NCBI GenBank assembly: GCA_043228905.1 | Contig: JBHGNT010000011.1 | Location: 8,370,001 to 8,434,000 of the forward strand | Direction of reading: 5' to 3' | DNA from: Azolla caroliniana | Taxonomy: Eukaryota; Plantae; Polypodiophyta | Length of the DNA: 64,000 bases | Shown: positions 534 through 44,990 of the stretch, in pieces | How the letters are laid out: every line of letters begins with the position of its first letter | Position numbering within the stretch: the stretch's first letter is position 1 | Translations under genes and position numbers: made by a program | The notes under the pieces: model-generated | Told to the model about the DNA's origin: nothing | Seen by the model: only the letters and a program-made list of their open reading frames with translations | The model's database searches: none

Positions 534-2790
534 TTCACACTTGGCCAAATGGGTTGTCTCAATCCCGAGGATTCAGAGTAATCAGGACTCCCCTTCTTTA
601 CACTCTCGTTTAACCCTCACACTTTATCAACGTGTATAGAATACTACGGTAAATTCTCACCACATGATATTATGTGGTCATGCCCGTAACATAATCCCCT
701 CCCCCTCTTTAAAACATTGCACTCTTGCAATGGAAAGTTAGGGAAGTTACTTCTAAGCGTATTTTCACGTTCCCATGTGGCATCTTTTATTGACTTATCC
801 ATCGATTTAATTTTAAATTCTCTAATTTTTTTAGAATGCAGATATTTTGTTTTAACATCAAGAATTCTTTCTAGTACATGTGGTTTAGAAGATAATTCTT
901 TAGAAGTAACCAGAGTTTTAGTTGTCATTGTATTGTCACCAGAACCTAGAAGTTCTTTTAGACGACATACATGAAAAACTAAATGGACTTCAACGCCATC
1001 ATGAAGAGCGAGATGATAGGTTGATGAAACAATGCATTTGGGGACTATAAAAGGTCCACAAAACCGTGGGGCTAACTTAGGGCACTAATTGTAGACAATG
1101 TGTTAGAATTGTGAGGTACACGTAAAAATACCTTTTGTCTAGGGTTGAATACACGAGGTTGCCTATTATGATCAGCATAAAAACACGCTCTATCTTGAGC
1201 TATTTTTATATTCTCTCATGTAGTGTGCAACATATCTTGCATATCCCGAAAAAAGTTTTGCGTACTTTGCAACTTATCATGATGTATATTAACATCAATC
1301 AGGGCTCATGGTGGAAAACCATACATCAACATAAAAGGACTATATCTCGTCGATGTATGCTTGAAGCTGTTATAAGCAAACTCCAAATTTGGGATATAAC
1401 GTTCCCATTTTGTTGGTTTTGTACCAACATATGCACAAAGCATGTCCTCAATAATTTGATTTACTCGTTCTGTTTGTCTAGCGAATTGAGGATGATCCAT
1501 GGAGCTCATGCTCAATATAGTTTCTAACTTCTTAAAGACTTGTCCAAAAGTTGCTAGTAAACTTTGGATCTCAATCACTCACGCTATTCATCGGTAACCC
1601 ATAAAAATGAAATAACTCCTCAACGAATTGGCAAGCCAATTCCGGAGTTGTTACCGTGGTTTTAGTAACAATAAATCTGGCCATTTTAGTTAGTCGATCA
1701 ACCACAACCTAGATGGCATCATGGCCTTTTTGAGTGTGAGGAAGGCTAACAATAAAATCCATGGATATACTTTCCCACTTATTATTGGGAATGTCCAAAG
1801 GATGTAAAAGTCTTGCGGCTTTAAGTTGCTTAGTTTTGTTAACCTGACACTAGTGACATTTAGTCATATAGCTATGTATGTCAGGACACATCTTGGACCA
1901 ATAGAATTGAGTCGAGATGAGAACAAGAGTACGATATATTCTAGGGTGCCCTACTGAGGGTGCATCATGGCATTAAAAAAGAATTCTCTTTTTGACCTCA
2001 GGAAAATCTGGAACACAAACCTTCCCATTACGGTAGAGCAGACCGTTGGAAATGTGGAAGTATTCCTTCGAGGATGTGGTGGTGTCTGTTCCAGACTCAA
2101 CTCTTGCCCAATATTTTACAAAATAACTCTCATTAGGATACTTTCATCGAAGGTGATAATAAAGATCTGATGTTATTTCAGTGAAGTTAAGCATGTTAAA
2201 CTTCACGGATGCGACTTAGTGCATCAGCGTGTCGTGTTCATGGAACCTTTAAGATATCGTATTTAAAAATCAAAGTCCTGGATGAGATCTGCCCATCATG
2301 CCTTATGACCTTTAAGGTCTTGTTGGTCACAAAAATATTTCAAGGACTCGTGATCTGTAGTTACCACAAAACGATTTCCATAAACATAATGACGTCATTT
2401 CTTGAGCGCATGAATAACTACAAATAATTCCTTTTCTTGCGTGGTATACCGACACTGAGCAGAATCTAGTTTCTTACTCTCAAATGTTATTGGTTTACCA
2501 TCTGGATATAAGACAACACCTATAGCATAATCACTTGCATCGGTTTTAACCTGAAAAGGTTTTAAAGGATCTAGTAAAAGAAGAGAAGGATCCTTGCACA
2601 CCAAGTCCTTGAGTTCCTTAAAGGCGTGGTCTAGTGTAGCATTCCACACAATGGGTTTTGTAGACTTACGTGTTTGACCTTTGAGAAGATCAGTAAACGG
2701 TGTCATCAATTGGGAGAAATTACGAAGAGATTTTCGCAAAAACCCGAGAAACCCAAGGAATGATCGAACTTCTCGAATATTACGAAGACA
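534..2790 (-). mobile_element. Ty3/gypsy chromovirus 3' half (RT end, RNaseH, integrase, chromodomain, PPT, partial 3' LTR 534-691)
   Basis: VRSFLG, TDASDYAIG, QEKELF, HPQ..QTERVNQ..EFAYN, chromodomain ERILD..DATWE (644-928); PPT AAGAGGGGGAGGGG at about 696-709 followed by TGTTAC at 691. Confidence 0.88.
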
Positions 2791-5021: not shown

Positions 5022-5302
5022 TGTCATAATATGGCAAGAACCCATAACCTTATATTACATGGGTCGAGCTCTTACCATTAGGCTATGTATTGTAATACGA
5101 AGGATATTTTTTTCATTTAAGTTTTACTAGTATATTCCAAATTTCTCTGAAACATTCTAGAAACTTCAAGAGTACTCTTGAGAACACTATAAAAGGAAGC
5201 ACAAAGCATTATTTCGAACCAAATCAGTTCAACGCCAGTCTTAAGCCTCATAGATATTCTTGTACTTACTCTTCATATAATATAATATATTTTTTGTTAT
5301 CA

Positions 5303-5362
<60 letters not shown>

Positions 5363-5455
5363 TCTCTCATGAGTTCTACACCCTTTTCTCTCTCTTAGTA
5401 CTAATTCGCATCTCTTAGTACTAATTCCCTCTCTATCTTAGTACTGTTCCTGACA
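5022..5455 (+). repeat. 5' LTR (434 bp) of the gypsy at 5022-9898
   Basis: Direct repeat of about 9503-9898; TATAAAA at 5188; (CT)n tract. Confidence 0.93.
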
Positions 5456-6216
5456 GTTTGAACCAATTTTCTCTCCCTCCTTTCTTTCATACTAATCCTC
5501 TTATCCTCCATAGTAAAATGGCAACTGGTAGCGCTCAGGAATACCAATCTGTTTTCTCGGCGCTCTAGTGCTTAAAAGAGATGTTTGTAGCACTAGAACA
5601 AGAAAATCACCGTTTGTTAGGGAATCTTCAACAAATAGCGCTAGAAAACAACAACACGGGGATCTGATGTTACGTGTACAGCAACTTGAAGCAACTATTA
5701 CATCACTACAAGAACATGGATCAAGCACTCAAGGGATTCACAAAGAACCCAAGATCGGTCTTCCTATGAAATTTGATGGGACCTGATCACAATTTAGAGG
5801 TTTTCTTAATCAGGTACGTTTAGTGATTCAAATGCATCGTTCTCGATATCCCACCAATGCATCACGGGTGGGACTAGTAGGCACTCTACTTAGTGGCACG
5901 GCTTTGGCATGGTTCGCCCCCCTATTAGAAAAAAGCTCTCCCTTGTTAAATAATTTTGAAGAGTTTATTACCGAGTTTAAAGCCTGTTTTGGAGATACCA
6001 ACAATATTAGGACAACAATCAACAAAATCCGGAGATTGCGCCAAGGTGAGCGGCCAGCCTCGGCTTATGCTGCGGCTTTTCGTCTTCTCACCACCGATAT
6101 TCCCTGGGATGACCAGGAATTAATGGAGCAATTTTATTTTGGCCTACGTAATGATGTTAAGGATAATACTCTTAACCTTCCCTGAAGAGCCAAAGTCATT
6201 GACAGAAGCAATCAAT

Positions 6217-6932
6217 AGCGCGGTGCGATGCGACAACCGCCTTTTCGAACGACATTCGGAACGTCCGTTCCAGATGCCAAGGACAAGATCAAAGCCCACC
6301 TACGCCTCAGTGGTAGCAAAACATTTTTCAAGGGAGTCATATAATGTGTCTCCAGCAAATACTCCAACTCCGATGAAAATCGACACCACACGTCGTCGCG
6401 GGCCATTATCGGAAGAGGAAAAAGAGTGACGCCGAACAAATCGACTATGTCTTTATTGTGGTGGACTAGGGCATATCGCAGTGAACGGTCCTCATAGGTC
6501 AAGAAGACAGGTAAACCAAATAGTCGCTAGTATTAATTGTTCTAAACCCGAGTGTATTTCAGTAGGAATATTTGAGCGCGGTGCGATGTGACAACCGCCT
6601 TTTCGAACGACATTCGGAACGTCAGTTCCAGATGCCAAGGACAAGATCAAAGCCCACCTACGCCTCAGTGGTAGCAAAACATTTTCCAAGGGAGTCATAT
6701 AATGTGTCTCCAGCAAATACTCCAACTCCGATGAAAATCGACACCACACGTCGTCGCGAGCCATTATCGGAAGAGGAAAAAGAGTGACGCCGAACAAATC
6801 GACTATGTCTTTATTGTGGTGGACTAGGGCATATCGCAGTGAACGGTCCTCATAGGCCAAGAAGACAGGTAAACCAAATAGTCGCTAGTATTAATTGTTC
6901 TAAACCCGAGTGTATTTCAGTAGGAATATTTG
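6217..6932 (+). repeat. 358-bp tandem duplication within gag (zinc-knuckle region)
   Basis: 6217-6574 and 6575-6932 are nearly identical. Confidence 0.95.
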
Positions 6933-9502
6933 ATAGTCCTAATAGCCCGAGGAATTTTGCCCAAGCTCATTAGATATCCCCAAGAAAACTCCCGTGTCCA
7001 GCCTCTGTAATAGTCATTGATGATCATCCCATTGCTTCCGGAAATATCATAGAAGAGTCAGAGCCAGTTAATACTGCCCTAGATAACTTAGCATGTGTAG
7101 TAGCATTTAATATAATTAGTATCCCAAAACATGCCATTGTTTTGGGATTACCATGGTTCGAATTACATAACCCAGACATAGATTGGAGAACAAGAGAAAT
7201 CTAGTATTGAAAAACCTGAGGATCTACTCATAAGATTGCAACCATTTGGCTACATCAGTTGCGTGAGGAAGGACACAAGGAAGAAATGTTTCTCTTCGTA
7301 GTATCAATAAAACCCTCCAACATCACTAAAGAGGAGTCCATTGTTCAACTTCCAAAGAAGTATCGTCATTATGCCGATGTGTTCGATAAAGTACAAGCCA
7401 ATACGCTTCCTCACCATCGACCGTATGATTGCCCCATTGATTTACAACCCGAAAAAGAGCCACCATGGGGATCGATCTACAACTTGTCACCAACCGAGCT
7501 AGAAGTCCTTCGAGGCTATATAGAGGAGAATTTGGCAAATGGTTTCATTCGACATTCGAAATCTCCAACCAGCGCACCCATTTTCTTCATCAAGAAAAAG
7601 GATGGATCACTACGTCTCATCGTAGATTACCGTGGGTTGAATAAGGTCACCATAAGGAATAGGTATGAACTTCCCCTTATTTCAAGTCTTTTAGAACGGA
7701 TCAATGTTGCAAGGTTCTTCACAAAGATCGACTTACGAGGACCATATAACTCGTACGGATCCAACCACGAGATGAATGGAAGACTATGTTTCGCACTAGA
7801 TATGGGCACTTCGAGTATACTGTTATGCCATTCGGTCTCACTATTGTGCCAACAATCTTCGAGCACATGGCAAATGATATATTCTAAGATCTCTTCGATG
7901 ATTGTTTGATCATCTATTTGGATGATCTACTGGTTTATTCGAAGACCGAAGAAGAGCATGATTCTCATGTACTGTTAGTACTAAAACGACTTCGACAACA
8001 TGGTCTTTATGCAAAGCTGGAAAAATGTAGTTTCGGGTGCAACCAGGTGGAATTTTTGGGATGTCATCTCCTCGGAAGGCATCTCCATGGATCCTGCTAA
8101 GGTCAAAATGGTGGTAGAGTGGCAAAATCCACGTTCGTTGCGAGATGTGCAATGCTTCTTAGGCTTTGCCAATTTCTACCACAAGTTTATATAGGATTAC
8201 TCAAAGCTTGTTCTACCTCTCACACAGCTTACCAAGAAGGGACAATCGTTCGTTTCGTCTGAAGAAGCAGACATGGCATTTGAGAGTCTTAAGAAGGCAT
8301 TTACATCAGCTCCTATTCTAGCTCATGTTGATCTGGAAAAATTCATCATTGAAGCAGATGCATCAGATTTCGCCTTGGGTAGCATTCTCTCTCAACAAGG
8401 CGATGATGAAAAGCTACATCCTGTGGCTTTCCACTCACGCAAGTTTGACGCCGCTGAAATCAACTATGAAATTCATGATAAGGAGCTATTAGCAATAGTG
8501 GACTCTTTTCCACAATGGAGGCATTTTCTAGAGGGGTCTTCTCATCAAGTCACTATATTCAGTGATCACAAAAACCTTGCCTACTTTCAAAATGCTCGTG
8601 TGTTAAATCGACCTCAAGCTCGAGGGGCGCAATTCCTCACTCATTTCGACTTCAAAATTACACATCGTCCGGGGAAGCAACAAGGGAAGGCAAATGCATT
8701 ATCACGACACTCGTATCTAGCACCGCGTCCTGGTGAGCCTCTTGCGATAACCAAAAGCAAGTAATCCTGGGACCGACACGACTGCAAGCAACGCAGGTCT
8801 TCGGTATGCCCTTGGATTCCCACATTATCGATACCATATGTGAGGACTTGAAGCGAGATGCTTTCGCCCAAGAAATTCTAGAACAAATTGATCCCTCTCG
8901 AGAATGTTGTTCACAGTCGCAACAACCAGGTACGGACTATCGACAATTCGAATGTCTTGATGGATTACTATTCTTTAAGAAACTCTTGTATGTTCCTAAT
9001 GGTACTTGTCGCCTTCAAGTAGTCCAAAACTGTCATGACACATATACAGCTGGGCATTTTGGTAGTACTAAAACATTAGATTTATTACAACGATCATTTT
9101 GGTGGCCCCATATGTGACAATTTGTCGAAGATTTTGTTCACATGGTGCAGAGCAAAAATTCCAAGGCATCATCCATATGGTTTATTAGAACCATTACCAA
9201 TTCCAAGCAAGCCAGGGCAATCCATCGCTCTAGATTTCATCACAGATCTTTCGATCTCTAAGGGATTCGATGCGATCTTAATAGTAGTAGATCGATATAT
9301 GAAGATGGCCCATTTCCTGGCATGTACTAAGGAAATCTCCAGTGAAGAAACCGTTGAAACTGCCATGCGTGAAGTATGCCGGCATCATGGCCTTCCCGAT
9401 AGTATCATCAGGGACCGTGGACCCCGGTTTGTCTTGAAGTTCTGGAATCACCTCTTTAAAATGGTCAAGGTCACATGTAACCTCTCCTCTAGCTACACCT
9501 GC

Positions 9503-9762
9503 GAACTCTTACCATTAGGCTATGTATTGTAATACGAATGATATCATTTTCATTTAAGTTTTACTATAGAAAATTGATGTATATTCCAGATTTCTCTGAA
9601 ACATTCTAGAAACTTCAGGAGTACTCCTGACAACACTATAAAAGGAGGCACAAAACATTATTTCGAACCAAATCGGTTCAACGCCAGTCTTAAACCTCAT
9701 AGCTATTCTTGTACTTACTCATCGTATAATATAATATATCTTTTGTTATCATCATTCTCCCT

Positions 9763-9804
<42 letters not shown>

Positions 9805-9898
9805 TTCTCTCGTGAGCTCTACACCATTTTGTCTCTCTTAGTACTAATTCACATCTCTTAGTACTAATTCCCTCTCTATCTTAGTGCTATTCCTGACA
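9503..9898 (+). repeat. 3' LTR (5'-truncated) of the gypsy at 5022-9898
   Basis: Matches the 5' LTR from CTCTTACCATTAGGC to CCTGACA. Confidence 0.92.
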
Positions 9899-19519: not shown

Positions 19520-19620
19520 GAAGAATCTGCATGGACCTCTGCATGCCAGCTGTTAAGGCTCTCTGCCTATTCACGACAGCCTCCTCAGGTGGCATGCAGG
19601 GAGCCAGGCAGGCAAATAAA
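19520..19620 (-). ncRNA. MIR160: MIR160 precursor hairpin; mature UGCCUGGCUCCCUGCAUGCCA at 19590-19610, opposite arm at 19528-19548
   Basis: 21-mer matches the conserved plant miR160 family (C15 variant); pairs with UGGCAUGCAGAGGUCCAUGCA with 3 mismatches and one G:U; located in a non-TE island. Confidence 0.93.
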
Positions 19621-21699: not shown

Positions 21700-22100
21700 A
21701 ACTATTATCTTGGTCAAATTCTAAAGCTTGATTTGTATATTTCTACTGCAATCTAAGCTAGACCTTTCTCTCGTATACTTGTTGAGGGTTAATTTATTAA
21801 TGGGAAGTCCTATTTAACCAAACCCTTGTCTCTCCTATACCTAAGAATCTACTATTAACCTCATTAATGTTCAAGATCTTGTCTAAGAATTCCATTATCA
21901 CTATTCACACAAGCTTCATATATTTAGCCTCTTTAATGCTCAAACTCTTGTCAAAGAATTCCATTGTCACGGAAGTTGTTATTCTAGGAGGGATATTGTC
22001 ATGATTACCGTGTCATATGCAGACTTTAACCCATGAACTTTTAGAGCATGGCATAAGTTCAAACCATTACGGTTATTCATATGATCAAATCATTAGAGTT
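21700..22100 (+). mobile_element. Highly decayed chromovirus 3' end (chromodomain tail, PPT, start of LTR at 21997)
   Basis: NAQTLVKEFH-like chromodomain tail (duplicated); AGGAGGGATA followed by TGTCATG, as in the element at 29589-33047. Confidence 0.6.
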
Positions 22101-23349: not shown

Positions 23350-23560
23350 TGTCATGATATGACCTCAAATAGGAAATAAACCCAAAACCTTATAGTGCAC
23401 GGGTCGATGCCTTACCATTAACATAAATAATGTACTATTAACAAAGAATTCGGCTCAACGTCAATCTTAAGCCTCTAAGTTGATCCTATCCTTGTACTCC
23501 TTTTCATCTAGTGCACTTCATTTTATCAAACTAAGCCTTCTCTACGATTGACCATATCTT
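23350..23560 (+). repeat. Decayed LTR fragment of the 5022-9898 family
   Basis: TGTCATGATATG..CCCAAAACCTTATA..GGGTCGA..CTTACCATTA..TCAACGTCAATCTTAAGCCTC matches 5022-5250. Confidence 0.65.
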
Positions 23561-29255: not shown

Positions 29256-29809
29256 CTAATCACCTGTATCCGCCTCTGTGTGCTAAGTGCTCTGTGTTCG
29301 CAAAATGAGAGAGACTCTGTTATGCGAAGGTTTTGTGTTCCCATTCTTGCCGCCATTTCTCGATTCCCGCACATGTATGTCGTGTGCTTTTAATAGTGGC
29401 TTTGTGACACGTGGTGGGCTTTACGTGACTTACGTCATACCATTTTGACGTGTCCATTCATTTTTTTAATGGCCTACATTCAAGAAAAAAATTAAATTTT
29501 TTTTTGCGTGCATGGTGGCATTACTCCATGTCTTTACTCCTCACCCCTACATGATGGGGTTTTTTTTCTGTTTTATTTAAAACCCTGTGTCAGAACTAAG
29601 GATAAAAGATAGAGTGATGGAAGAAGGATATTAGAGAACACGAGAAGAAAGGAACCAAATACTAAGAGAAGAATGGATGTATAAGATAGAGAAAGAAAGA
29701 GAATGGATACAAGATATGTAATGAGAGCTAAAGACTGGTGTTGATTCGAATTGATTTGAGAATACATGTATGCCCTTATTTATAGGTTCCTATAGAATAG
29801 CTTAGAGAT

Positions 29810-29873
29810 TTCTAGAATGTTCTAGAATGTTCTAGACCTAGAATGCTCTAGGACATTCTAGAACATTCTAGAA
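29810..29873. promoter_or_regulatory. Heat-shock element array in LTR U3 (second copy at 32826-32890)
   Basis: TTCtaGAAtgTTCtaGAAtgTTC (5 phased units) plus TTCtaGAAcaTTCtaGAA, upstream of minus-strand TATAAATA at 29777-29784. Confidence 0.7.
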
Positions 29874-31189
29874 TAATCTAGAGTTTTTACAATAATCAAT
29901 GTAATACAAGAAGTAGCTTTTATTATTTCATATAACAATAAGCTATCTTAATGGTTGAGGTTTTCCCGTATGAATTACAAGGTTCGAGGTTCAAGTCCGG
30001 GTGACGCCATAATGGTCATGTGTTCATGACACTATCCCTCCTTCGAGAACGCTGAGTGGAAGTCGGCGTTAACATTGTTGGGTCGGGCTTGTTTGGATAG
30101 TGACGATGGAAGTCGTTGACCAGAGCTTCAGCATTACAAACGTTATCGATGGGTTCCCAAGTGCGATCACTCGGAGGATAACCAAGCCAATCAACTAGAT
30201 AATAAAGCTTATTGCGCACAATCTTAGAATCGAGAATAGCAGCTACCTCGTATTCGGGGCCGTCCACACGTTGTACAGAAGGCGGTGGTGGCACGACATG
30301 ATTAGGAATTAAGACGAAATGTTGCATCATTAATCTGCGCCATGATGACAAAAGGACCTAAGCGTTGATAGTCAAGCTTAGCACACGGTCGGGTAGTCTT
30401 GATGTGAAGACGAAGCAACCATACACGGTCACCAACCTTAAACGGAGACTTAAGACGATGTCGATCAGCATTGGTCTTATGGTGTGCTTGCGCTTTCTGA
30501 AGATGTGACGATAACTTGAACTGGATTTGTTGTAGTCGGTGGAGGTGATGCGCCGCACTAGGGTTTCATGACACCTCGGGAAGATCCAGTATACACCATC
30601 GAGGGTTGTTGCTGGTGTAGGCAAAGAAAGGTGTAACTTTGGTAGAAGAGTGGACCATGTTGTTGTATGCAAACTCGTCAAGATGTAAAATATTACTCCA
30701 ATCATCTTGTTGATAACTAATGAAACATCGAAGATATTGCTCGAGCGTTTGATTTGTGCGCTCTGTTTGTCCGTCAGTTTGTGGATGATAAGCCGAAGAG
30801 AGTTTGCAAGAGATTTTGAGGCTTGCCCATAGGTGCTTCCAAAAGTGTTAGATAAATTGAGGACCTCGATCGCTAATAATATCATTCGGGAGACCATGAT
30901 GGCGAAACACTTCACGCATAATGAGATCTGCAGTTTCTTCACTATTGATGGTCTTTACACATGGTACAAAATGTGCCATCTTGGTGAACCGATCCACTAC
31001 TGTTAAAATAGTATCAAAGCCTTTGGAAGGTGGCAGATCCGTAATGAAATCCATAGAAATAGACTGCCATGGCTTGTTGGGAGGGGGTAATGGTTGTAGT
31101 AAGCCATAAGGGTGATGCCAGGGTATTTTGGCGTGACAGCAGGTGTCACAAGTGCGAACATAATCTTCGACAAATTTTTGCAAGTGAGG

Positions 31190-32713
31190 TCACCAAAACG
31201 AACGTTTCACCAGCTCAATGGTCTTGGAAATACCAAAATGTCCAGCCATGGGGGCATCATGACAATGTTCCAACACTTGAAGTCGGGGTGATCCGTCGGG
31301 GAAGTAAAGGAGATTCTTGTAGAAGAGTAAACCATGTTGCCACTTGAAGTCCTGATAATGTTGAGATGACCCTGGCAATGTGGAGCAAGATGGACGACTT
31401 GAACCACAGTGGGCTAAGACATCCTTAGCAAAATCATCCGAATGAAGTTGTCGCCGAATAGTGTCAAGAAGGGTAGAATCAAGTAGTGTGGCATAAATTG
31501 TTGTTAACTGTAGCTTTGATGGCCTGAGGAGAGTTTGCTTTTGATTGTCAAAGGCCGGATCTCCAGGTCGAAGTGCTAGATATGAACGCCGAGACAGAGA
31601 ATCTGCTTTCCCTTGTTGTTTTCCGGGGCGAAAAATGATCTTGAAATCGAAATGCGTTAGAAATTGGGCCCACCAAGCTTGTCGTCTATTTAATACTCGA
31701 GCTGTTTGAAAATATGTGAGATTTTTGTGATCACTATAAATGATAATCTGATGAGGTGATCCTTCTAGAAAATGACGCCATTGCTCGAATGAGTCGACCA
31801 CAGCTAGTAACTCCTCGTCATGCACCTCATAGTTTATCTCCGAAACAGTAAATTTTCTCGAGTGAAACGCGACTGGATGTATTTGCCCGTCCTTGCCTGG
31901 TTGCGATAGGATACTCCGCAATGCAAATTCTGATGCATCCGCCTCAATAGTAAATGGCTTTTCAGGATCAATATGTGCTAGGATGGGTGCTGATGTGAAT
32001 GCCTCTTTCAGCTGCGTAAAAGCCTTGTCCGCTTCGATACTCCAAAAAAATGCTTGATTTTTCTTGGTGATTTGAGTAAGGGGCAACACAATGCTTGAAT
32101 AATTATGTATGAATTTGCGATAGAAGTTCGCAAATCCCAGGAAATACTGGACATCCCAAACTGAGCATGGGGGTTTCCATTCCAATATTGTTTGGACTTT
32201 TGCCGGGTCCATGAAAACACCCTGGGATGAAATAGTGTATCCCAAAAATTCGACTTGTTTGCAATCAAAACTGCATTTCTCAAGTTTGGCGTAAAGACCA
32301 TACTTCCTTAGGCGTTCAAGTACTTGCCGCACATGTATATCATGCTCCCCCTGTGTTTTAGAGTAAATCAATAGATCATCTAGGTAGATGATTAGAAAAA
32401 TATCCAAGAAATCCCGGAAGATGTCATTTGCCATATGTTGGAATACGGCAGGTGCATTTGTGAGCCCGAAAGGCATGACTATATACTCGAAATGACCATA
32501 CCGAGTACGAAATGTTGTTTTCCACCCATCTCCCGGCCGAATTCGAACAAGATTATATGCACCCCTTAGATCAATTTTGGTAAAATGTTTTGCCCCACCA
32601 ATGTGTTCTAAGAGATTGGAGATTAAAGGTAAAGCATACCTATTCCTTATGGTGACTTTATTTAAGCCTCGATAGTCCACGACCAAACGAAGGGAGTCGT
32701 CCTTTTTCTTCAC
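31190..32713 (-). CDS. Gypsy Pol fragment (RT, RNaseH, start of integrase), 507 open codons
   Basis: LRLVVDYRGLN, KIDLRGAY, MPFGLTNAP, YLDD, ADAS, HDAPMAGHFG. Confidence 0.85.
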   Translation of the reverse strand: MKKKDDSLRLVVDYRGLNKVTIRNRYALPLISNLLEHIGGAKHFTKIDLRGAYNLVRIRPGDGWKTTFRTRYGHFEYIVMPFGLTNAPAVFQHMANDIFRDFLDIFLIIYLDDLLIYSKTQGEHDIHVRQVLERLRKYGLYAKLEKCSFDCKQVEFLGYTISSQGVFMDPAKVQTILEWKPPCSVWDVQYFLGFANFYRKFIHNYSSIVLPLTQITKKNQAFFWSIEADKAFTQLKEAFTSAPILAHIDPEKPFTIEADASEFALRSILSQPGKDGQIHPVAFHSRKFTVSEINYEVHDEELLAVVDSFEQWRHFLEGSPHQIIIYSDHKNLTYFQTARVLNRRQAWWAQFLTHFDFKIIFRPGKQQGKADSLSRRSYLALRPGDPAFDNQKQTLLRPSKLQLTTIYATLLDSTLLDTIRRQLHSDDFAKDVLAHCGSSRPSCSTLPGSSQHYQDFKWQHGLLFYKNLLYFPDGSPRLQVLEHCHDAPMAGHFGISKTIELVKRSFW

Positions 32714-35700
32714 AAAAAAGATAGGAGCACCAGCTGGAGACTTTAAATGTCGAATAAACCTATGTGCAAGACCTAGAATACATGTATGCCCTTATTTATA
32801 GGTTCCTATAGAATAGCTTAGAGATTTCTAGAATGTTCTAGAATGGTCTAGACCTAGAATGCTCTAGGACATTCTAGAACATTCTAGAATAATCTAGAGT
32901 TTTTACAATAATCAATGTAATACAAGAAGTAGCTTTTATTGTTTCATATAACAATAAGCTATCTTAATGGTTGAGGTTTTCAAGTATGAATTACAAGGTT
33001 CGAGGTTCAAGTCCGGGTGACGCCATAATGGTCATGTGTTCATGACACCTTGTATCCAGCAACACCGGATCCGTTGTATGTTCCTCCTCTTGGTTGCTAG
33101 TTATCCGCTTGCCGTTTCCGGTTTCTGCTTCGGCAACCGGTTGTTTAAACAAGTTCCGTGGCATTGGTCCATAATACGGTTTTAGTCGGAAACCGTTTAC
33201 CCATTTTTCCACGACCTTGCCGGCCAATGTTCCTAGCTGATATGAGCCATTAAACTCTCGTATTATCCATTATGGTTCGGTCCACCAGAACCATAGCTTT
33301 CCCTACATATTGCCCATATGGGTTTGAAATACTAACACCGGCTTGCCGATTCCGAACATTTTCTCATTCCCTTTCCGGTACCGGTCGATGAACGCTTTCC
33401 ATCGTTGTTGCTCGAGTTCCAACTACAGAATGCTGGCTATCCGGTGTTCTTCTAATTCACACAATGTCGTTAGTCGAATTTTCTCCGATTCCTTCTCACT
33501 TAACCTTTCCCGTACTTGAATCCGCAAACTCAAAATTTGAAACTCTATCAACATGATCGCTTCTAATCCAAAAGCTAAATGGAATGGTGTTGTCCGAATA
33601 CTTGTTTTGTATGCGGTTCGGTAAGTCCACATTGCACTTTGCAGCTTTGTGTCCCAGTCTGTGCAGTTTTCATTGACTATTTTCTGGAGGATGTTTTGCA
33701 AGGTTTTGTTGGTGGATTCGGCCAATCCGTTGACTTGTGGATAATAGGTTGTACTCCGCTTGTGTATGACCGCATAAAACGTCGTCAAGCTCTCTACTAC
33801 TAGACCGAGGAAATGTCCTCCTTGATCATTGATCAGTTGTATCGGTCATCCATATCGGCACCAAATGTACTCGTATAGGAACTTGGCCGTTGAGGCCACG
33901 GGATTATCCCGGAGTGCCTTTGCTTCCACCCATTTGGTGCAATAGTCTGTTGCTAGAATGATATATCAGTTCCCAGTTCGCATTGTTGGAGGTTTGAACG
34001 GTCCAACGAAGTCCAATCCCCATTTTTGAAACGGCTCCAGTGGTAACACCGGTTGGTGTGGCATCCTTGCTTGTTTTGTTGGTTGGCCCATCCATTGACA
34101 TAAGTCACATTCCTTTGCATACCGAATTGAGTCCTTCATTGTTGTAAGCCACCACAATCCGCTTTGCCATATCATCTTTGTCGTTGCTTCACAATGAGCT
34201 TCCCATAAAATTGTCTCCTTTTCGTCGCTCCGAACCGCTCTTCGCCATATACCAACCCTAAACCCTTGTGGTACAGCGTATCTTGTAGTAAACAAAAATG
34301 TTGGCTTTGTGGTATGCCTTATCCTTCGGTTCTGTGCATTGGAAAGGTGTTCAGTGTACAACTACGTGTAGTGGTGTCGCAAGATCTGCCAAGTATCGGA
34401 GCATTTGGCTATGCCACCGGATTTTCCCTAAAAGCCGACTGAAAGCTTTGGTAGTTGTCGGTGCCGGTGCTTCCAAAATGGCTTTTAACTTTATCCGGGT
34501 CCACCACAATGTCGTCCTTAGTCACAATATTGCCCAGTAGCGTGCCGCTGGTTACTCCAAATACGCATTTCGTCAGGTTCAGACTTAGCCGGTAACCTCT
34601 ACATTTCTACAGGCATAACTGGAGACAATCAAGAAGTTCCCCTTTCCTGCTATACACCACAAAGTCATCCAGGAACACTTGCATAAACGTTGGGATAAAT
34701 TCCCCGAAAATTTCCATGATGATTCGTTGGAACGTTGCCGGTGCCATCTTCAGTCTGAACATAATCACAACCACTACAAAGACTCCCCATTCAATGACGA
34801 ACGTTGTTTTCTCTTGATCGTCCTGGTGCATCCTGATTTGATTATACCTGCTGAATCCATCGTGGAGGCTATACACCTCGTGGGCTGCTACTGCATCCAA
34901 GACCCCATCCGTGAATGGGAGCGGGAATGCATCAGTGACATTGGCAACATTCAATTTCCGGTAATCCACACAGACCCGAATCTTTCCATTTTTCTTCGGT
35001 ACCACCACGATCGGAGTTAGCTAGATGGCTCTCTGCACCAACCGGATGAACCCAACCCGCAACAACTTGTCGATCTCTTCTTTTACTTTAGTCACATAAT
35101 TCGGATTCATCCGGTAACATCTCTGCGCTACTGGTTTCGCATCCTTGCTTAAATGAATCTGGTGCTGATATAATTGCGGGTCCAATCCCCACATGTCTTC
35201 ATATGACCACGCAAATACGTCCCGAAATTCTTTCAATAATGTGATCATTGCCGATTTCTCCTCCCATGTCATTTCTTTGGCCACTTGCACCGGTCTTGCT
35301 TCTTCATTGGTTCCCAAATTCACTTCTTCCAATTGTGATGTTTTCACCTGTTGTGATACCACCATCTCCTACTCTAGGGCCTCTTGTGCTTGTCGTAGGT
35401 CCCAGATTGCATTCCTATCTGGCCCCTCACCAACATTGTCCGGTTTCCCAATATATGGGGACATCGCCTTTGCGATGTCTACTTCAAACAGAGGGACTAT
35501 CCTTGGGTTTTCATCAAGGTAGCGATCTACCTCCTCATTGGCGAGCCCTTCCAGCATATTCACGCTTTTGGCATATAACGGTGTTACTTCTTTGCCTAGG
35601 CCCGCTTGAGGGTGCGTGGGTACTCTTACCTTAGTTTTCCCCCTTCGAAACATAATGTTTTCTTCTGCCAATTCTGTTTGATGTGGGCGGTCTGGAACCA

Positions 35701-38166: not shown

Positions 38167-38625
38167 TCACGGGAAGCTCCCTATACGCAATGCTCGGCCA
38201 CAACCGAGCTTAGAATCATACACAAAAAACGGGAAATGAAACGCACGACACAAAGAAGAGAAGAGTACACAAGATGTTTACGTGGAAAACCCAAACTAGG
38301 GAAAAACCACGGCAGCCCATAGGCTGCAAACTATCACTATGCTAGAATGTACAATAGTGAGTTCACGGAGGCAACAACCTCGTGCTCACGATCTTCGCCA
38401 TAGGTAGCGGTTACAACAGAGGCAACGACCTCTTCCTCTCTCCCTTCCTCTCTATACACTGTTACACGCTATATTCTTGTGCAAAAGCAAAAACGACAAC
38501 AACAACTAAAAGTTTGCCCTAAGTCATATTTATACTAATATGACTTTTCGGCTATTTACAAATATAGCCTCTATGGACTCTCAGAAACATATTTACGAAT
38601 ATGTCTCTTCATCCGGTGAGTACTC

Positions 38626-38841
38626 CTCACCGGGTCTTCACCATCTGGCTCTCCGTAGCCAGGTACTCCTCATCCGGTTCTCACCGGGTCTGCACCATCC
38701 GGCTCTCCGTAGCCGGGTACTCATCATTCGGTTCTCACCGGACCTGCACCATCCGGCTCTCCGTAGCCGGGTACTCCTCATCCGGTTCACACCGGGTCTG
38801 CACCATCCGGCTCTCCGTAGCCGGGTACTCCTCATCCGGTT
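38626..38841. repeat. 54-bp tandem repeat, 4 copies, in the 3' LTR
   Basis: Unit CTCACCGGGTCTGCACCATCCGGCTCTCCGTAGCCGGGTACTCCTCATCCGGTT. Confidence 0.93.
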
Positions 38842-38904
38842 CTCAACAGCACTGTTCTCCTCCCTTCCCATCCGGAGGGACCTGTCTCCCAACAAACTCC
38901 CCCT

Positions 38905-41900
38905 TCACTCCGGCATGGGGTGTCTTACTAGTCCGATCCTCTTCGGGCATGCGTCCAGCTTGTCGGGTATCAACACGTTGGTCAGCATATCTGACCCGTT
39001 CTCGGCCGTGTGTATCTTCTTCAGTGCGAACTCCTGGTCATCTACTCTTTCCCGGATCCAATGATATCTTCGCTGGATATGCTCCGTCCGGGAATGATAG
39101 GCTACATTCTTAGCAAGATGGATGGCACTTTGACTGTTGCAATAGATTCGGTATTCATCTTGCCGGATACCGAGCTCTTCGATGAAGTCCTTCATCCATA
39201 ATATTTCCTTGCCAGCTTCCACAGCCGCCATGTACTCCGCCTCCGTGGTTTACAATGCAACCGTCTTCTGCAGCCTTGACTCCCACGAGACAGCTCCCCC
39301 TGCATATGTCATTACATACCCGGATGTAGACTGGCTGGTATCCACATCAGCCGACATGTCTGAATCGGTGAAACCGTCAAGTTGAGGTTTTCCGGAGCCG
39401 AATCGGAGACACATATTTTAAGTACCCTTCAAATAACGGAGTATCCATTTGACCGTGTTCTAGTGCTCCTTGTCGGGATTGCTCATAAACTGGCTCACCA
39501 CTCCGACTGCGTATCCTATATCCGGTCGGGTACACACCATTGCGTACATCAAGCTCCCTACAGCAGAGGCATATGGGATCTTCATCATATCCACCTTCTC
39601 TGCTTTCTTCTTCGGGCTTTCCTTACCAGATAACCTGCAGTTTGCCGGAAGTGTCGATCCAACCGGTTTCGCATCTGACATGTTGAACCGGCAAGCACCT
39701 TTGTCACGTACTTCTCCTGTGACAGCCATAATTGCTTCATTGACCGGCTTCAGATAATATGCATCCCCAGCATCTGTCTTGCCGGACCCAAGTCTTTCAT
39801 TGAGAAGGTTCGGTTGAGGGCCTTCTTCAGCATCCGTATTTTGACTTGGTCCCGTCCGACGATCAACATGTCATCCACGTACAGAAGGAGTATCAGGAAG
39901 TCGCCTCCTTCAAACTTCTTCACAAACACGCAGTAATCGGCCTGCGTCTTGTGGTACCCTTGATCAGCCATGAAGGAATCGAGCTTCTGGTACCATTCCC
40001 GGGGGGCCTGCTTCAACCCGTAGAGGCTCTTCTTCAACCGGCATACCAGGTTTTCCTTCCCTGTCTCCACAAATGCCTCTGGTTGCTGCATGTAGATCTC
40101 CTTTTCGAGGTCGCCGTGAAGGAATGCTGTCTTCACATCTAGTTGCTCTACCTCGAGGTCCATGCTTGCCGCTATAGTCAGCACCGTCCGGATGGAGGTC
40201 ATCTTTACTACCGGGCCAAATATCTCGTCAAAGTCCACGCCCTTTTTCTGTTGGAACCCCTTCACCACGATCCTGGCTTTGTATCTCGGGGGGTTGCCGG
40301 CATCTCCTGGTTTCAACTTGTACACCCACTTGTTTCGGAGTGCCCGCTTTCCTTTCGGTAACTCCACCAATTCATACGTATGGTTCTCATGCAGGGAATC
40401 CATCTCATCCTGCATGACACTTAACCATCTGCGGCTGTGGGTGTCATCCTTCGCTTCTTCGAAGCTTTCCGGCTCCCCCTCATCGGTCAGTAGAACATGC
40501 TCTGCATCCGGAAATCTCCGGGGCACCCTTCTCTCTCTGAGAGGATATCTCCGTCTTCGGGCTTCGGTAACCGGCTCCTCCATTTGCTCTTCATCCGAAT
40601 CCGATTCGGGGTCTTGGCCGGTTCCGGTTTCAGTTTCCTCTACTTCTTCTTCAGTCTATTCGGTATCCTCACCGTAACCGGCTGGTCCCTCGAGTGCTAA
40701 CCGGTCTCTTGCCGGTTGGATCTGCTCATCGTAGAGTCGATCCTTACCGGTCGACTCGGAGTTCATTATCGTCTTCTCTGACTCCCAGTCGGCGAGCGTC
40801 TTGTCCTCCATGAAGATAATATCTCAACTCCGGAATACCTTCTTGTTGACCAGGTCCCACACTCGGTAGCCGAACTCATCGTCATCGTAACCGAGGAATA
40901 TGCATGGCCGGGTCTTTGGATCTAACTTTCCTCTCCGGTCCTTAGCTACATGCACGTACGCGAGACACCCGAACACCTTCAGATGTCCGTAGGATACTTC
41001 CTTACCGGTCCATACTCTCTGAGGCGTGTCTTCGTCCAAGGGTACTGAGGGTGATCTATTTATCACATATGTCGCCGTCGACAATGCCTCAGCCCAAAAC
41101 TTCTTGGGTAGTTTTGCATGCGCGAGCATACTCTGAACCCTCTCCATTATGGTCCGGTTCATCCTCTCGGCCAGTCCGTTTAGTTCCGGCGTCTTCGGCA
41201 CGGTAAATTCAAGCTGGATTCCCTTCGAGCGGCAGTACTCCTCGAACTGCCCCCGGTATTCTCCTTCGTTATCTACTCGAACCGCCTTCAACTTCCGGCC
41301 GGTTTCTCTTTCCACTCTCGCGTGGAGCTCTTTGAAGACGGATAGCACCTGATCCTTCGTCTTCAACGGTGTGGCCCACAACTTCCGGTTGTGGTCATCT
41401 ATGAATGTCACGAAGTACTGCGCTCCGGCATGTAACTTCGTGTCTACCTGACACACATCTGTTTGCACCAACTCTAGTGGTGCATTACGTCTCATCGGTG
41501 GCCTTGGTCGGAAGGAGGTCCGGTTTTGCTTACCGGCCAGACAATCAGTGCACTTCTCCAAGTGCACGTTCTTCAGTGGAATGAGGTTGTCGTCTGCAAG
41601 CCTCTTCATCCCCTTCTCGCTCATATGACACAACCTCTTGTGCCACAGCTCACCGGCAGTGTCGGATGCCACGTTCACTTCTTCTGGACATAACTGGGCA
41701 TTCATCAAGTACAACGTGTTGACCTTCCGGGCCTGAGCCACAATCAAGCTCCCTTTGCTGAACTTCATGACTCCGTTCCGGATGCTACCCGTGTAGCCTT
41801 CATCATCTAGCAGACCGGCTGATATCAGGTTCAGACGAACCTCCGGAACATGTTGGACATCCTTCAGCAACAACTTGCATCCGATTGATGTTGTCAGCCA

Positions 41901-42950: not shown

Positions 42951-43444
42951 TTTCTGTGTCGTTTCGCTCTGATACGACTTGACGGGAACTGCACGCTCCC
43001 TATACGCAACGCTCGGCCACAACCGAGCTTAGAATCATACACAGAAAACGGGAAATGAAACGCACGACACAAAGAAGAGAAGAGTACACAGGATGTTTAC
43101 GTGGAAAACCCAAACTAGGGAAAAACCACGGCAGCTCACAGGCTGCAAACTATCACTATGCTAGAATGTACAATAGTGAGTTCATGGAGGCAACGACCTC
43201 GTGCTCACGATCTTCGCCACAGGCGGCGGTTACAACAGAGGCAACCACCTCTTCCTCTCTCCCTTCCTCTCTATACACTGTTACGCGCTATATTCTTGTG
43301 CAAAAGCAAAAACGACAACAACAACTAAAAGTTTGCCCTAAGTCATATTTATACTAATATGACTTTTCGGCTATTTACAAATATAGCCTCTATGGACTCT
43401 CAGAAACATATTTACGAATATGTCTCTTCATCCGGTGAGCACTC

Positions 43445-43714
43445 CTCACCGGGTCTTCACCATCCGGCTCTCCGTAGCCGGGTACTCCTCATCCGGTTCT
43501 CACCAGGTCTGCACCATCCGGCTCTCCGTAGCCGGGTACTCCTCATCCGGTTCTCACTAGGTCTGCACCATCCGGCTCTTCGTAGCCAGGTACTCCTCAT
43601 CCGGTTCTCACCGGATTTGCACCATCCGGCTCTCCGTAGCCGGGTACTCCTCATCTGGTTCTCACCGGGTCTGCACCATCCGTCTCTCCGTAGCCGGGTA
43701 CTCCTCATCCGGTT
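43445..43714. repeat. 54-bp tandem repeat, 5 copies, in the 5' LTR
   Basis: Same unit as 38626-38841 with one extra copy. Confidence 0.93.
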
Positions 43715-43767
43715 CTCAACAGCACTGTTCTCCTCCCTTCCCATCCGGAGGGACCTGTCTCCCAACA

Positions 43768-44990
43768 AATCTGACTCTTCACTTGTGCTCCATATAGTTC
43801 CCGATTCTTTTGATTGTAGTTGGGAATCAGCCTGCTCTTGTAAACCTAAATAATGAGATCCCAGAGAATATTAGTATCAACTCACATACTCACAAGTTTG
43901 CAAACATACTAGTAACTATAAACATAGGAGGTTAATAGCCACACTTTTACCTACTGTCACATCGTCATACTGTACAGCCATAGACAACCCATTACAAGTG
44001 GTAGGGTCAGTCATCTTCTCTACAACATCTAAGTGTTCATCAGATTTAGGGATGGTGCCAATTGTAGGTTGGGGCTCATCATCAATAGAAGATTTCATAA
44101 TAGTATCTATAGAATGCACCAAAATCACCACTATACTAGGGTAGTTATGATCTAAATAATTGTTTTGTTAGAGGGCTTTTGACGTGTACCTGGGAGTGTG
44201 ATAAATTCGTCTTCATGATCAAGGTTTGGACTCGTATCTCCCTCTCCTAGGATCATTTTGTCATCAACTAGTAACATAACTACATGGTATTCGTCAATGC
44301 ATTAGGTTCACAACTCTCCAGACAGGTGAGAACATATATGACTCACCATTGCATTCAACTCTGCCTTTCTTGCCCTTTCCATACAACTTCCTTGCAACAT
44401 TCCTCTTCTTAGTGGGCTCTTTTTTAAAGACATCAGGCATTTAACATACACACACAAATCAGAAATAAGATGTGAAACCATAGTTTGTGTTACCTGGATT
44501 GTTGTGATGTTGACCAGAGCTTGGGGAATTTGTTTGCAGAAGCACATGTTCCACTGCTCCAATGGCCCTTCTCATACATTCATCTTCATCATAAAACTCA
44601 TAGGTTACTGGTAATGAAGGTCCTTGAACCTTGGAATGTGTAGCAGATACCGAGGGTTTAGGCACAGAGCTGGTTGTTCCATTACCTTCCCTGACGTGGA
44701 GTTGATTGACACTACAACATTCATTGCAAGAAACAAAAAAAACCTTCAAGGTTAGTACCTTGACATAAAAAAATACAATGTAGGTCACATCTTTAGTCTG
44801 TTTCGAGCCTAATACAACTAAACTACCAAGAGCTGCAGTACTAAATCATTAGTAAACACCTAGTTCCCATATTACAAAACTAGTACTAATTCGTGAACAA
44901 TGTACTACTCACCTAATTTCCAAATTACACAACTAGTACTAATCGTGAACTGTATACTACAAGTATAGTGTGTACTACACTAGTATTGGG
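43768..44990 (-). other. Uncharacterised exon-like fragments and ACTAGTACTA-rich tract, possibly internal to the DNA transposon ending at 54879
   Basis: ORF pieces 44459-44788 and 43916-44131 separated by T-rich intron-like stretches. Confidence 0.3.

Follow-up and report, generated by a model that had tools for sequence, protein, structure and literature searches.

A conserved, outward-facing tRNA-gene-like box pair in the long terminal repeats of Tcn1-type chromoviruses as a candidate TFIIIC site

The box pair and the elements that carry it

The 64,000-nucleotide stretch of Azolla caroliniana DNA analyzed here (the window) is a nest built of retrotransposons with long terminal repeats (LTRs); among them lies a chromovirus of the Tcn1 type whose 3' LTR (29588..30031, minus strand; 444 bp, TGTCA...TGACA) carries, antisense to the element, a module that resembles the two-box promoter of tRNA genes. 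The A box (29944..29954, plus strand; TATCTTAATGG) corresponds to tRNA positions 8-19 and has one mismatch against TRGYNNARYGG. The B box (29988..29997, plus strand; GGTTCAAGTC), at tRNA positions 52-61, matches GGTTCRANYC perfectly and is extended upstream by a vestige of the tRNA variable loop (positions 44-48; 29980..29984, plus strand), whose columns are conserved and were not used for anchoring. A first-pass annotation of this DNA had described the module at 29944-30009 with an A box, a B box, a distance of 45 nt from T8 to G53 and an orientation antisense to the element, and all of this stands. It had also listed a CCA (30007..30009, plus strand, the GCCA ending at 30009) as part of the module; these letters lie at tRNA-equivalent positions 71-73 (3' strand of the acceptor stem plus discriminator), not 74-76, and are present in 9 of 30 modules, so that they are a vestige of the acceptor stem and not a CCA tail.

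The four other window copies named in the same annotation are likewise present. One (32960..33025, plus strand) lies in the 5' LTR of the same element, hereafter the main element, and another (5032..5085, minus strand) in the 5' LTR (5022-5455) of a related element, A, which spans 5022-9898 and is bounded by a target-site duplication, GACTC, that agrees at 5/5 letters. The latter copy keeps the module, with a perfect A box, but not a complete B box, the 3' half of which is gone. Two diverged modules lie at 22022..22074 (minus strand; LTR start 21997, after a polypurine tract [PPT]) and 23373..23425 (minus strand; LTR start 23350), and element A has a truncated 3' LTR, where a break at 9502 within the module leaves the A-box half (9502..9522, minus strand). 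A profile built from metagenome LTRs alone found the window copies at 5085-5038 (E = 4.5e-10), 32960-33013 (3.8e-08) and 29944-29997 (4.3e-08) and, more weakly, those at 23423-23379 (2.6e-05) and 22071-22022 (0.012) and the A-box-only remnant at 9522-9502 (0.34), with no further match in the 64-kb window. A B-box scan of the other window repeats gave no perfect match, and its one-mismatch matches were as expected for those lengths.

The metagenome relatives were gathered without reference to the module: metagenome contigs were scanned with 54 aligned chromodomain sequences, and the best 80 of 205 relative-encoding stretches were kept, yielding 77 loci in 16 assemblies. In 68 of the 77 loci the PPT rule gave the LTR start, a relaxed rule supplied it for 3 others, and 6 had none assigned; once 4 LTRs shorter than 120 nt had been dropped, the metagenome LTRs and 4 window LTRs made up 71 sequences, which were reduced to 38 representatives at 80% identity. 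Of the 38 representatives, 29 have an antisense B box with at most one mismatch within their first 100 nt (200 shuffles: mean 1.1, maximum 5). Perfect B boxes occur in that interval in 17/38 antisense versus 0/38 in sense, and the next 100 nt of the LTR holds a perfect antisense B box in 0/37. With one mismatch allowed, the sense strand scores in 9/38, none of them perfect, and the B-box core is near-palindromic. A B box with at most two mismatches is present in 35 representatives, and in 20 of these an A box lies 30-60 nt upstream of it with at most one mismatch (shuffles: mean 1.8, maximum 6). Where the A box has at most two mismatches (29 representatives), the A-to-B spacing is 45 nt in 15, 44 nt in 12, 43 nt in 1 and 52 nt in 1, ties in the spacing search having been broken in favour of 44 nt. 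The gap between the boxes is 32-33 nt, and the distance from the B box to the LTR tip ranges from 11 to 63 nt. The module occurs in close form in runs under five organism labels. In L023, L036, L047 and L060 a tandem duplication of the LTR's first 15-35 nt shifts the module inward and leaves its spacing unchanged; module-bearing LTR types also exist beyond the scored set (L004 612-665, L009 541-591, L048 about 140-193, L077 1199-1216), that of L048 having a 12-nt A box which includes position 17 and is nearer to a real tRNA gene.

The elements that carry the module are coding and self-priming. Eleven of 13 long loci have a Gag-sized open reading frame (ORF) together with a Pol ORF of 1183-1235 codons, and 10 of these 11 have a scored intact module. 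Reverse transcriptase (RT) cores from 18 elements with the module share 85-100% identity, and RT identity to SM-Tcn1 is about 79% as counted by eye. In the main element, the PPT (30032..30044, minus strand) adjoins the 3' LTR, and the integrase ends in a C-terminal group I chromodomain (30037..30357, minus strand; PF00385 was matched on homologues) with the aromatic cage Y36/W57/Y60, three residues that are nearly invariant in 54 sequences. A self-primer segment at the start of R (29740..29752, minus strand) is complementary to the primer-binding site (PBS) of the family (members L001, L002 and L005). Across the sample a self-priming PBS is present at 17 5'-LTR junctions, in 15 of which the R segment complementary to it could be seen. 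Between families R segment and PBS change together and the B box does not follow, for which reason we rejected the idea that the B box duplicates the self-priming PBS. In most families the self-primer segment (start of R, e.g., window 5221-5245) itself resembles the core of a B box in sense and lies in a short inverted repeat; it tracks the PBS, not the module.

Tcn1 has been given as 83% self-priming with 5-bp duplications (PMC6317226). The element type would suit mosses or non-seed plants of another kind, and the MIR160-like hairpin described below marks the window as land-plant DNA. SM-Tcn1 and RLG1 share with the module lineage the group I chromodomain, the 5-bp target duplication and self-priming (PMC6317226), and SM-Tcn1 also shares the motif at the start of R and in the PBS (PMC2864245). 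SM-Tcn1 is said to be without a priming signal in the portion of PMC2864245 concerned, and we saw the same complementarity in it by eye. On its sequence, the module appears to mark a sub-branch of the Tcn1 clade, since by eye there is no B box or module in the LTR of SM-Tcn1 from Selaginella (supplement S3 of PMC2864245) and no module in the first 400 letters of the transcript of P. patens RLG1 (PMC7466625).

Conserved letters without a tRNA fold

Rates of change were taken from a tree of chromodomain DNA, for which there were 61 representatives at 97%, 46 of them with a canonical module, and the 42 with an ungapped chromodomain were used. Expressed as changes per site on this tree of 42 LTRs, the invariants of the A box have 1.5, those of the B box 2.0 (C61 alone has 7) and variable-loop positions 44-47 have 2.5, against 7.4 in the spacer, 10.2 in the upstream U3 and 9.8 in the 3' part; chromodomain codon positions 1, 2 and 3 have 2.2, 1.6 and 6.7. 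Box columns, that is, change 4-6 times less than their neighbours and are more conserved than the adjacent U3, as the first-pass annotation had proposed when it claimed that the boxes are kept while the sequence between them diverges. The variable-loop columns, which were never used for row choice, are slow as well, with 91% column identity, and they match the GTC signature that stands 5-7 bp before the core and belongs to the B box of tRNA genes (PMC3159450).

The letters found at each tRNA position, counted over 42 modules at 90% clustering, bear out the idea of a tRNA-gene-derived box pair, as the substitution pattern is that of a type 2 RNA polymerase III (Pol III) promoter. T54 and T55 are never C, G53 is never A, and position 59 takes all four bases. 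At C56 the letters are C in 38, T in 2 and A in 2, and at position 57 they are G in 23 and A in 19, a one-sided decay that we count for selection because the two positions share one CpG, so that decay should strike both equally. Two columns outside the textbook boxes, T47 (34/35) and T16 (32/35), are as fixed as the boxes themselves. Variants within families, with eight rows differing at seven places and one of these in a box invariant, offer little power, and the module is intact in 38/42 contigs of coverage 5 or more versus 18/25 low-coverage contigs. Judging from these letters, the box pair is under selection throughout the lineage as sampled.

The tRNA fold has fared differently. The first-pass annotation had looked to a tRNA covariance score as a check, and Rfam gave no tRNA match on the window or on the module; ARAGORN did not score the module as a tRNA either, and its relaxed setting (-ps80) returned 142 scattered calls that amount to noise. 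Pairing in the acceptor, D, anticodon and T stems is no higher than with swapped partners (36% in the acceptor and 44% in the anticodon stem), overall stem pairing is 56.2% versus 55.2% in shuffles, and RNAalifold predicts 0 pairs for the module. The missing tRNA score thus means that the RNA fold was lost, not the boxes, and, since none of the stems exceeds its controls in pairing, an RNA fold suits the data less well than recognition of the DNA does. The letters that have been kept would appear to be those read by a DNA-binding factor.

The layout of a tRNA gene has been retained. In an unanchored MAFFT alignment of 29 LTRs picked for intact modules with two real tRNA genes of L024, modules and genes fall into the same register, the sole common gap being at D-loop position 20a. 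The module profile matches these two genes at just E = 0.25 and 3.8, with about 50% identity to each. Among the phage records matched by the window module in blastn, three of four lie on tRNA genes, at E values of 2-8 that are too weak to count, and with the L025 module there was no tRNA among the matches listed (15 of 29 records); the viral and prokaryotic collections yielded no relatives. The module may have arisen through insertion of a short interspersed nuclear element (SINE) or a tRNA gene into U3, or through read-through of a tRNA misprimed near the U3 tip. The tRNA genes of L024 (552-627, plus strand, and 831-906, minus strand) are convergent tRNA-Asn and tRNA-Thr genes beside a truncated element; a short stretch resembling an LTR tip follows directly after the tRNA-Asn gene, with no LTR body seen, probably by chance.

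A candidate TFIIIC site and its possible roles

In type 2 promoters TFIIIC binds the B box and the A box places TFIIIB upstream, and in yeast A-B distances of 32-93 bp are tolerated (PMC12409998). Barriers formed by tRNA genes (tDNAs) in yeast require TFIIIC (PMC2040200, PMC12409998); that of fission yeast needs both an A box and the full complex and is active whichever way it is oriented, and that of budding yeast depends on the distance between the boxes (PMC2040200). By comparison with these systems, we consider it probable that the module is a selected site that binds TFIIIC. What such a site does for the element is a matter on which we are more guarded: we tentatively propose that it acts as a built-in barrier of the tRNA-gene type, or as a chromatin opener, for the element's RNA polymerase II (Pol II) promoter, and regard as rather more doubtful the specific version in which TFIIIC and TFIIIB, at the outer edge of every copy of a heterochromatin-targeting lineage, hold that promoter open.

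In this proposal the A box and the extended B box would bind TFIIIC at the outer LTR edge, and TFIIIB would assemble upstream of the A box; given the outward direction of the module, that place is in U3 on the inner side, with the module to one side of it and the region of the TTCTAGAA array and TATA box to the other. Once a copy had inserted into heterochromatin, the barrier would then keep its Pol II promoter open, with a short outward Pol III transcript as a possible by-product. The module cannot make the genomic RNA of the element. The array of TTCTAGAA repeats in U3 (29810..29873, minus strand) has the module on one side and, on the other, the element's predicted Pol II TATA box (29777..29784, minus strand), situated about 160 nt farther inward than the A box; we take these repeats to be heat-shock-element-like. 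Such arrays recur in U3 at many loci, with up to 9 overlapping sites in some families and zero in other module-bearing families. In favour of a barrier, the aromatic cage of the chromodomain, a feature linked to heterochromatin targeting, is intact, and another gypsy element encloses the window copy.

Several points weigh against this interpretation. CAA precedes the A box about as often as expected by chance (8/27 versus 6.0), and the AT-rich peak lies 25-16 nt before T8, nearer than the AT-rich region of plant tRNA genes at -20 to -35; upstream signals are weaker in non-flowering plants (PMC13578239). A-box position 10 is T in 21/42 modules and G in just 13/42; C61 is lost in 9/42, and in two of four runs it is changed to T at 12% and 18% of contig depth. 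The rows behind the conservation figures were picked for a recognizable module, which flatters the box columns, and the 16 assemblies of the 77 loci have neighbouring numbers, which limits what they can say about host breadth. RLG1 is without the module, yet abundant and expressed in heterochromatic islands; as it thrives in this state, not every element of this kind needs a barrier. TFIIIC barrier function is not described for plants in the relevant part of PMC13578239, and we infer TFIIIC binding and TFIIIB assembly from what type 2 promoters do, and barrier activity from the yeast systems.

The same data bear on other explanations, of which an active outward Pol III promoter, with selection keeping a short antisense RNA as decoy or regulator in the manner of foamy virus LTR RNAs, is unlikely though it has points in its favour. 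Both boxes stand at the fixed spacing that TFIIIB placement needs, a run of four T (T4) follows within 60 nt of the B box in 16/27 representatives versus a run of four A (A4) in 6/27, and T4 is rare inside the module (2/30 versus 9.9 in shuffles). A4, however, is rare there too (1/30 versus 5.5), so that the depletion is not strand-specific; 8/27 have no T4 for more than 250 nt, because of which transcript ends would vary widely; and with 41% pairwise identity in the spacer, neither an RNA sequence outside the boxes nor a fold is conserved. Quite unlikely, in our view, is a function on the unintegrated cDNA, where TFIIIC bound 11-63 nt from the U3 tip would tether or protect the integration complex, or one in which the LTR is a landing pad for elements that target Pol III genes. 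The module is always near the cDNA end, and Ty3, DGLT-A, TRE5 and the chromovirus Skipper-2 do target via the Pol III machinery (PMC3159450, PMC5006619); but the cage is intact here, unlike that of the tRNA-targeting Skipper-2 (PMC5006619), and tRNA genes were found in just 1/77 loci, not at the LTR end. Moreover, the 7/72 LTRs that break from their nearest relative do so at scattered points between -37 and +92 nt relative to T8 and not once at an LTR terminus, with 4 having no comparable relative, in a test that is weak because collapsed repeats with short flanks make up many of the contigs.

The remaining explanations differ in what is thought to read the module, if anything does. An unrelated host DNA-binding factor that reads the relic, the likeness to TFIIIC boxes reflecting origin more than present use, would suit the fixation of T47 and T16 and a spacing stricter than the 32-93 bp that suffices for TFIIIC in yeast; we nevertheless think it very unlikely, as kept and free letters follow the A and B consensus point by point in two boxes 45 nt apart, and the T47 region is part of the published B-box signature of tRNA genes (PMC3159450). 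Ty3, which is tRNA-primed, has U3 segments complementary to the T and D arms of one matched tRNA (PMC5371799), and a bipartite primer site of this kind, with sense RNA pairing to a host tRNA, would account for the antisense orientation and the U3 position. The module lineage, in contrast, is self-priming and follows the promoter consensus, its B box does not co-vary with PBS and R segment, the changes that wobble pairing would make neutral are absent from the 42 modules at T54, T55 and G53, and no single tRNA would allow all four bases at position 59; the module is thus likely not a tRNA-pairing site of the Ty3 type, and we hold pairing to be scarcely probable. A neutral relic of tRNA or SINE capture, inherited by descent, gains from row selection that favours the boxes and from the 85-100% identical RT cores, by which the shared ancestry is recent at the protein level, but we disfavour it as highly improbable in view of box columns 4-6 times slower than their neighbours, variable-loop columns that are also slow though never used for row choice, one-sided CpG decay and modules that are intact in 38/42 well-covered versus 18/25 low-coverage contigs. 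The colinearity with real tRNA genes, broken by the single D-loop gap, is what an antisense RNA folding as a tRNA mimic would offer, but with pairing at the level of shuffles, 0 RNAalifold pairs and no ARAGORN or Rfam call, the probability of such a mimic seems close to negligible.

LTR-borne promoters of small-RNA genes have so far been described for tiny, non-coding elements, in which they make the element's own RNA. Because a coding element of the Pol II type keeps the boxes pointing outward, and at a rate like that of conserved codon positions, they must do another job here. If the built-in barrier is true, it points to a way in which an element guided by a chromodomain remains expressed within heterochromatin, and it would be the first TFIIIC barrier in plants, with mobile boundary elements scattered through host genomes. 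The existence of plant TFIIIC barriers would then become testable, and the module-less RLG1 of the model moss is a natural control. If TFIIIC binds, the numerous LTR copies would supply these genomes with many additional TFIIIC sites.

Comparison with known systems, and other features of the window

The first-pass annotation had pointed to Cassandra as a known parallel; Cassandra does place Pol III control elements in a plant LTR, but the closer parallel is Helenus, which is tRNA-derived. Helenus (TRIMp3; Kojima 2024, PMC10886601), with one plant family (Selaginella) according to that account, resembles the module in that its LTR sequence is tRNA-derived, with boxes A and B conserved and mostly no functional tRNA. 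It is non-autonomous, 311-1263 bp long and tRNA-primed, the tRNA is in sense in the LTRs of the supplement (e.g., Helenus-1_SMo), and it was proposed to serve as promoter of the template RNA (PMC10886601). The module-bearing elements, in contrast, have Gag-sized and Pol ORFs, self-priming, a Pol II TATA box and outward boxes. Cassandra, one of the TRIMs (terminal-repeat retrotransposons in miniature), is 5S-derived (type 1) and non-autonomous and transcribes the element itself, as summarised in PMC10886601. Since Helenus and Cassandra are non-autonomous, and the Helenus LTRs of the supplement have the tRNA in sense, the two do something different, and we ruled out the module as a template promoter of their type, the elements being protein-coding and self-priming and their B box antisense. 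According to the sections of PMC10886601 concerned, autonomous partners have to rely on Pol II, LTR sequence of this kind is unlikely to be shared by them, and other Repbase LTRs resemble tRNA, with TRIMs alone being followed. Because those sections mention such LTRs without describing them, LTR sequence with the module may be deposited but unanalysed. A literature search that covered few subscription journals and no Repbase entries found no description of such a module in autonomous or moss elements.

For the putative barrier activity the nearest systems lie outside plants. Yeast tDNA and extra TFIIIC (ETC) barriers are TFIIIC-binding sites, with A and B boxes or a B box, that restrict how far chromatin states spread, and they belong to host genes (PMC2040200, PMC12409998). 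The boundaries formed by mouse B2 are mobile TFIIIC-binding sites, in SINEs and not in LTRs (PMC8136502). The module differs from both in being a fixed part of an autonomous LTR. The microRNA cassettes of foamy virus LTRs are Pol III units in the LTR of an autonomous retroelement, and make conserved hairpin RNAs (PMC7104284, PMC7693620, PMC3993851); the module, by comparison, has no conserved fold or RNA sequence.

The main element is nested inside another gypsy element and appears to be a recent insertion, because its two LTR parts differ at 4/273 letters: the 5' LTR remnant (32775..33047, minus strand; U3 part) has 269/273 letters in common with the 3' LTR. Its target-site copies (29583-29587 and 33048-33052) match at 4/5 letters. 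RT, RNase H and the start of integrase occupy 31190..32791 (minus strand), and a deletion at 32773-32783 removed R-U5, the PBS, gag and protease and fuses the 5' LTR to RT. Elsewhere in the window, the paired repeats that flank a copia element hold 54-nt tandem repeats (38572-38950 and 43391-43823), and a MIR160-like hairpin with an intact 21-nt mature sequence stands amid the nest of transposable elements (19525-19613, minus strand), scoring 42.8 bits versus a gathering score of 48.
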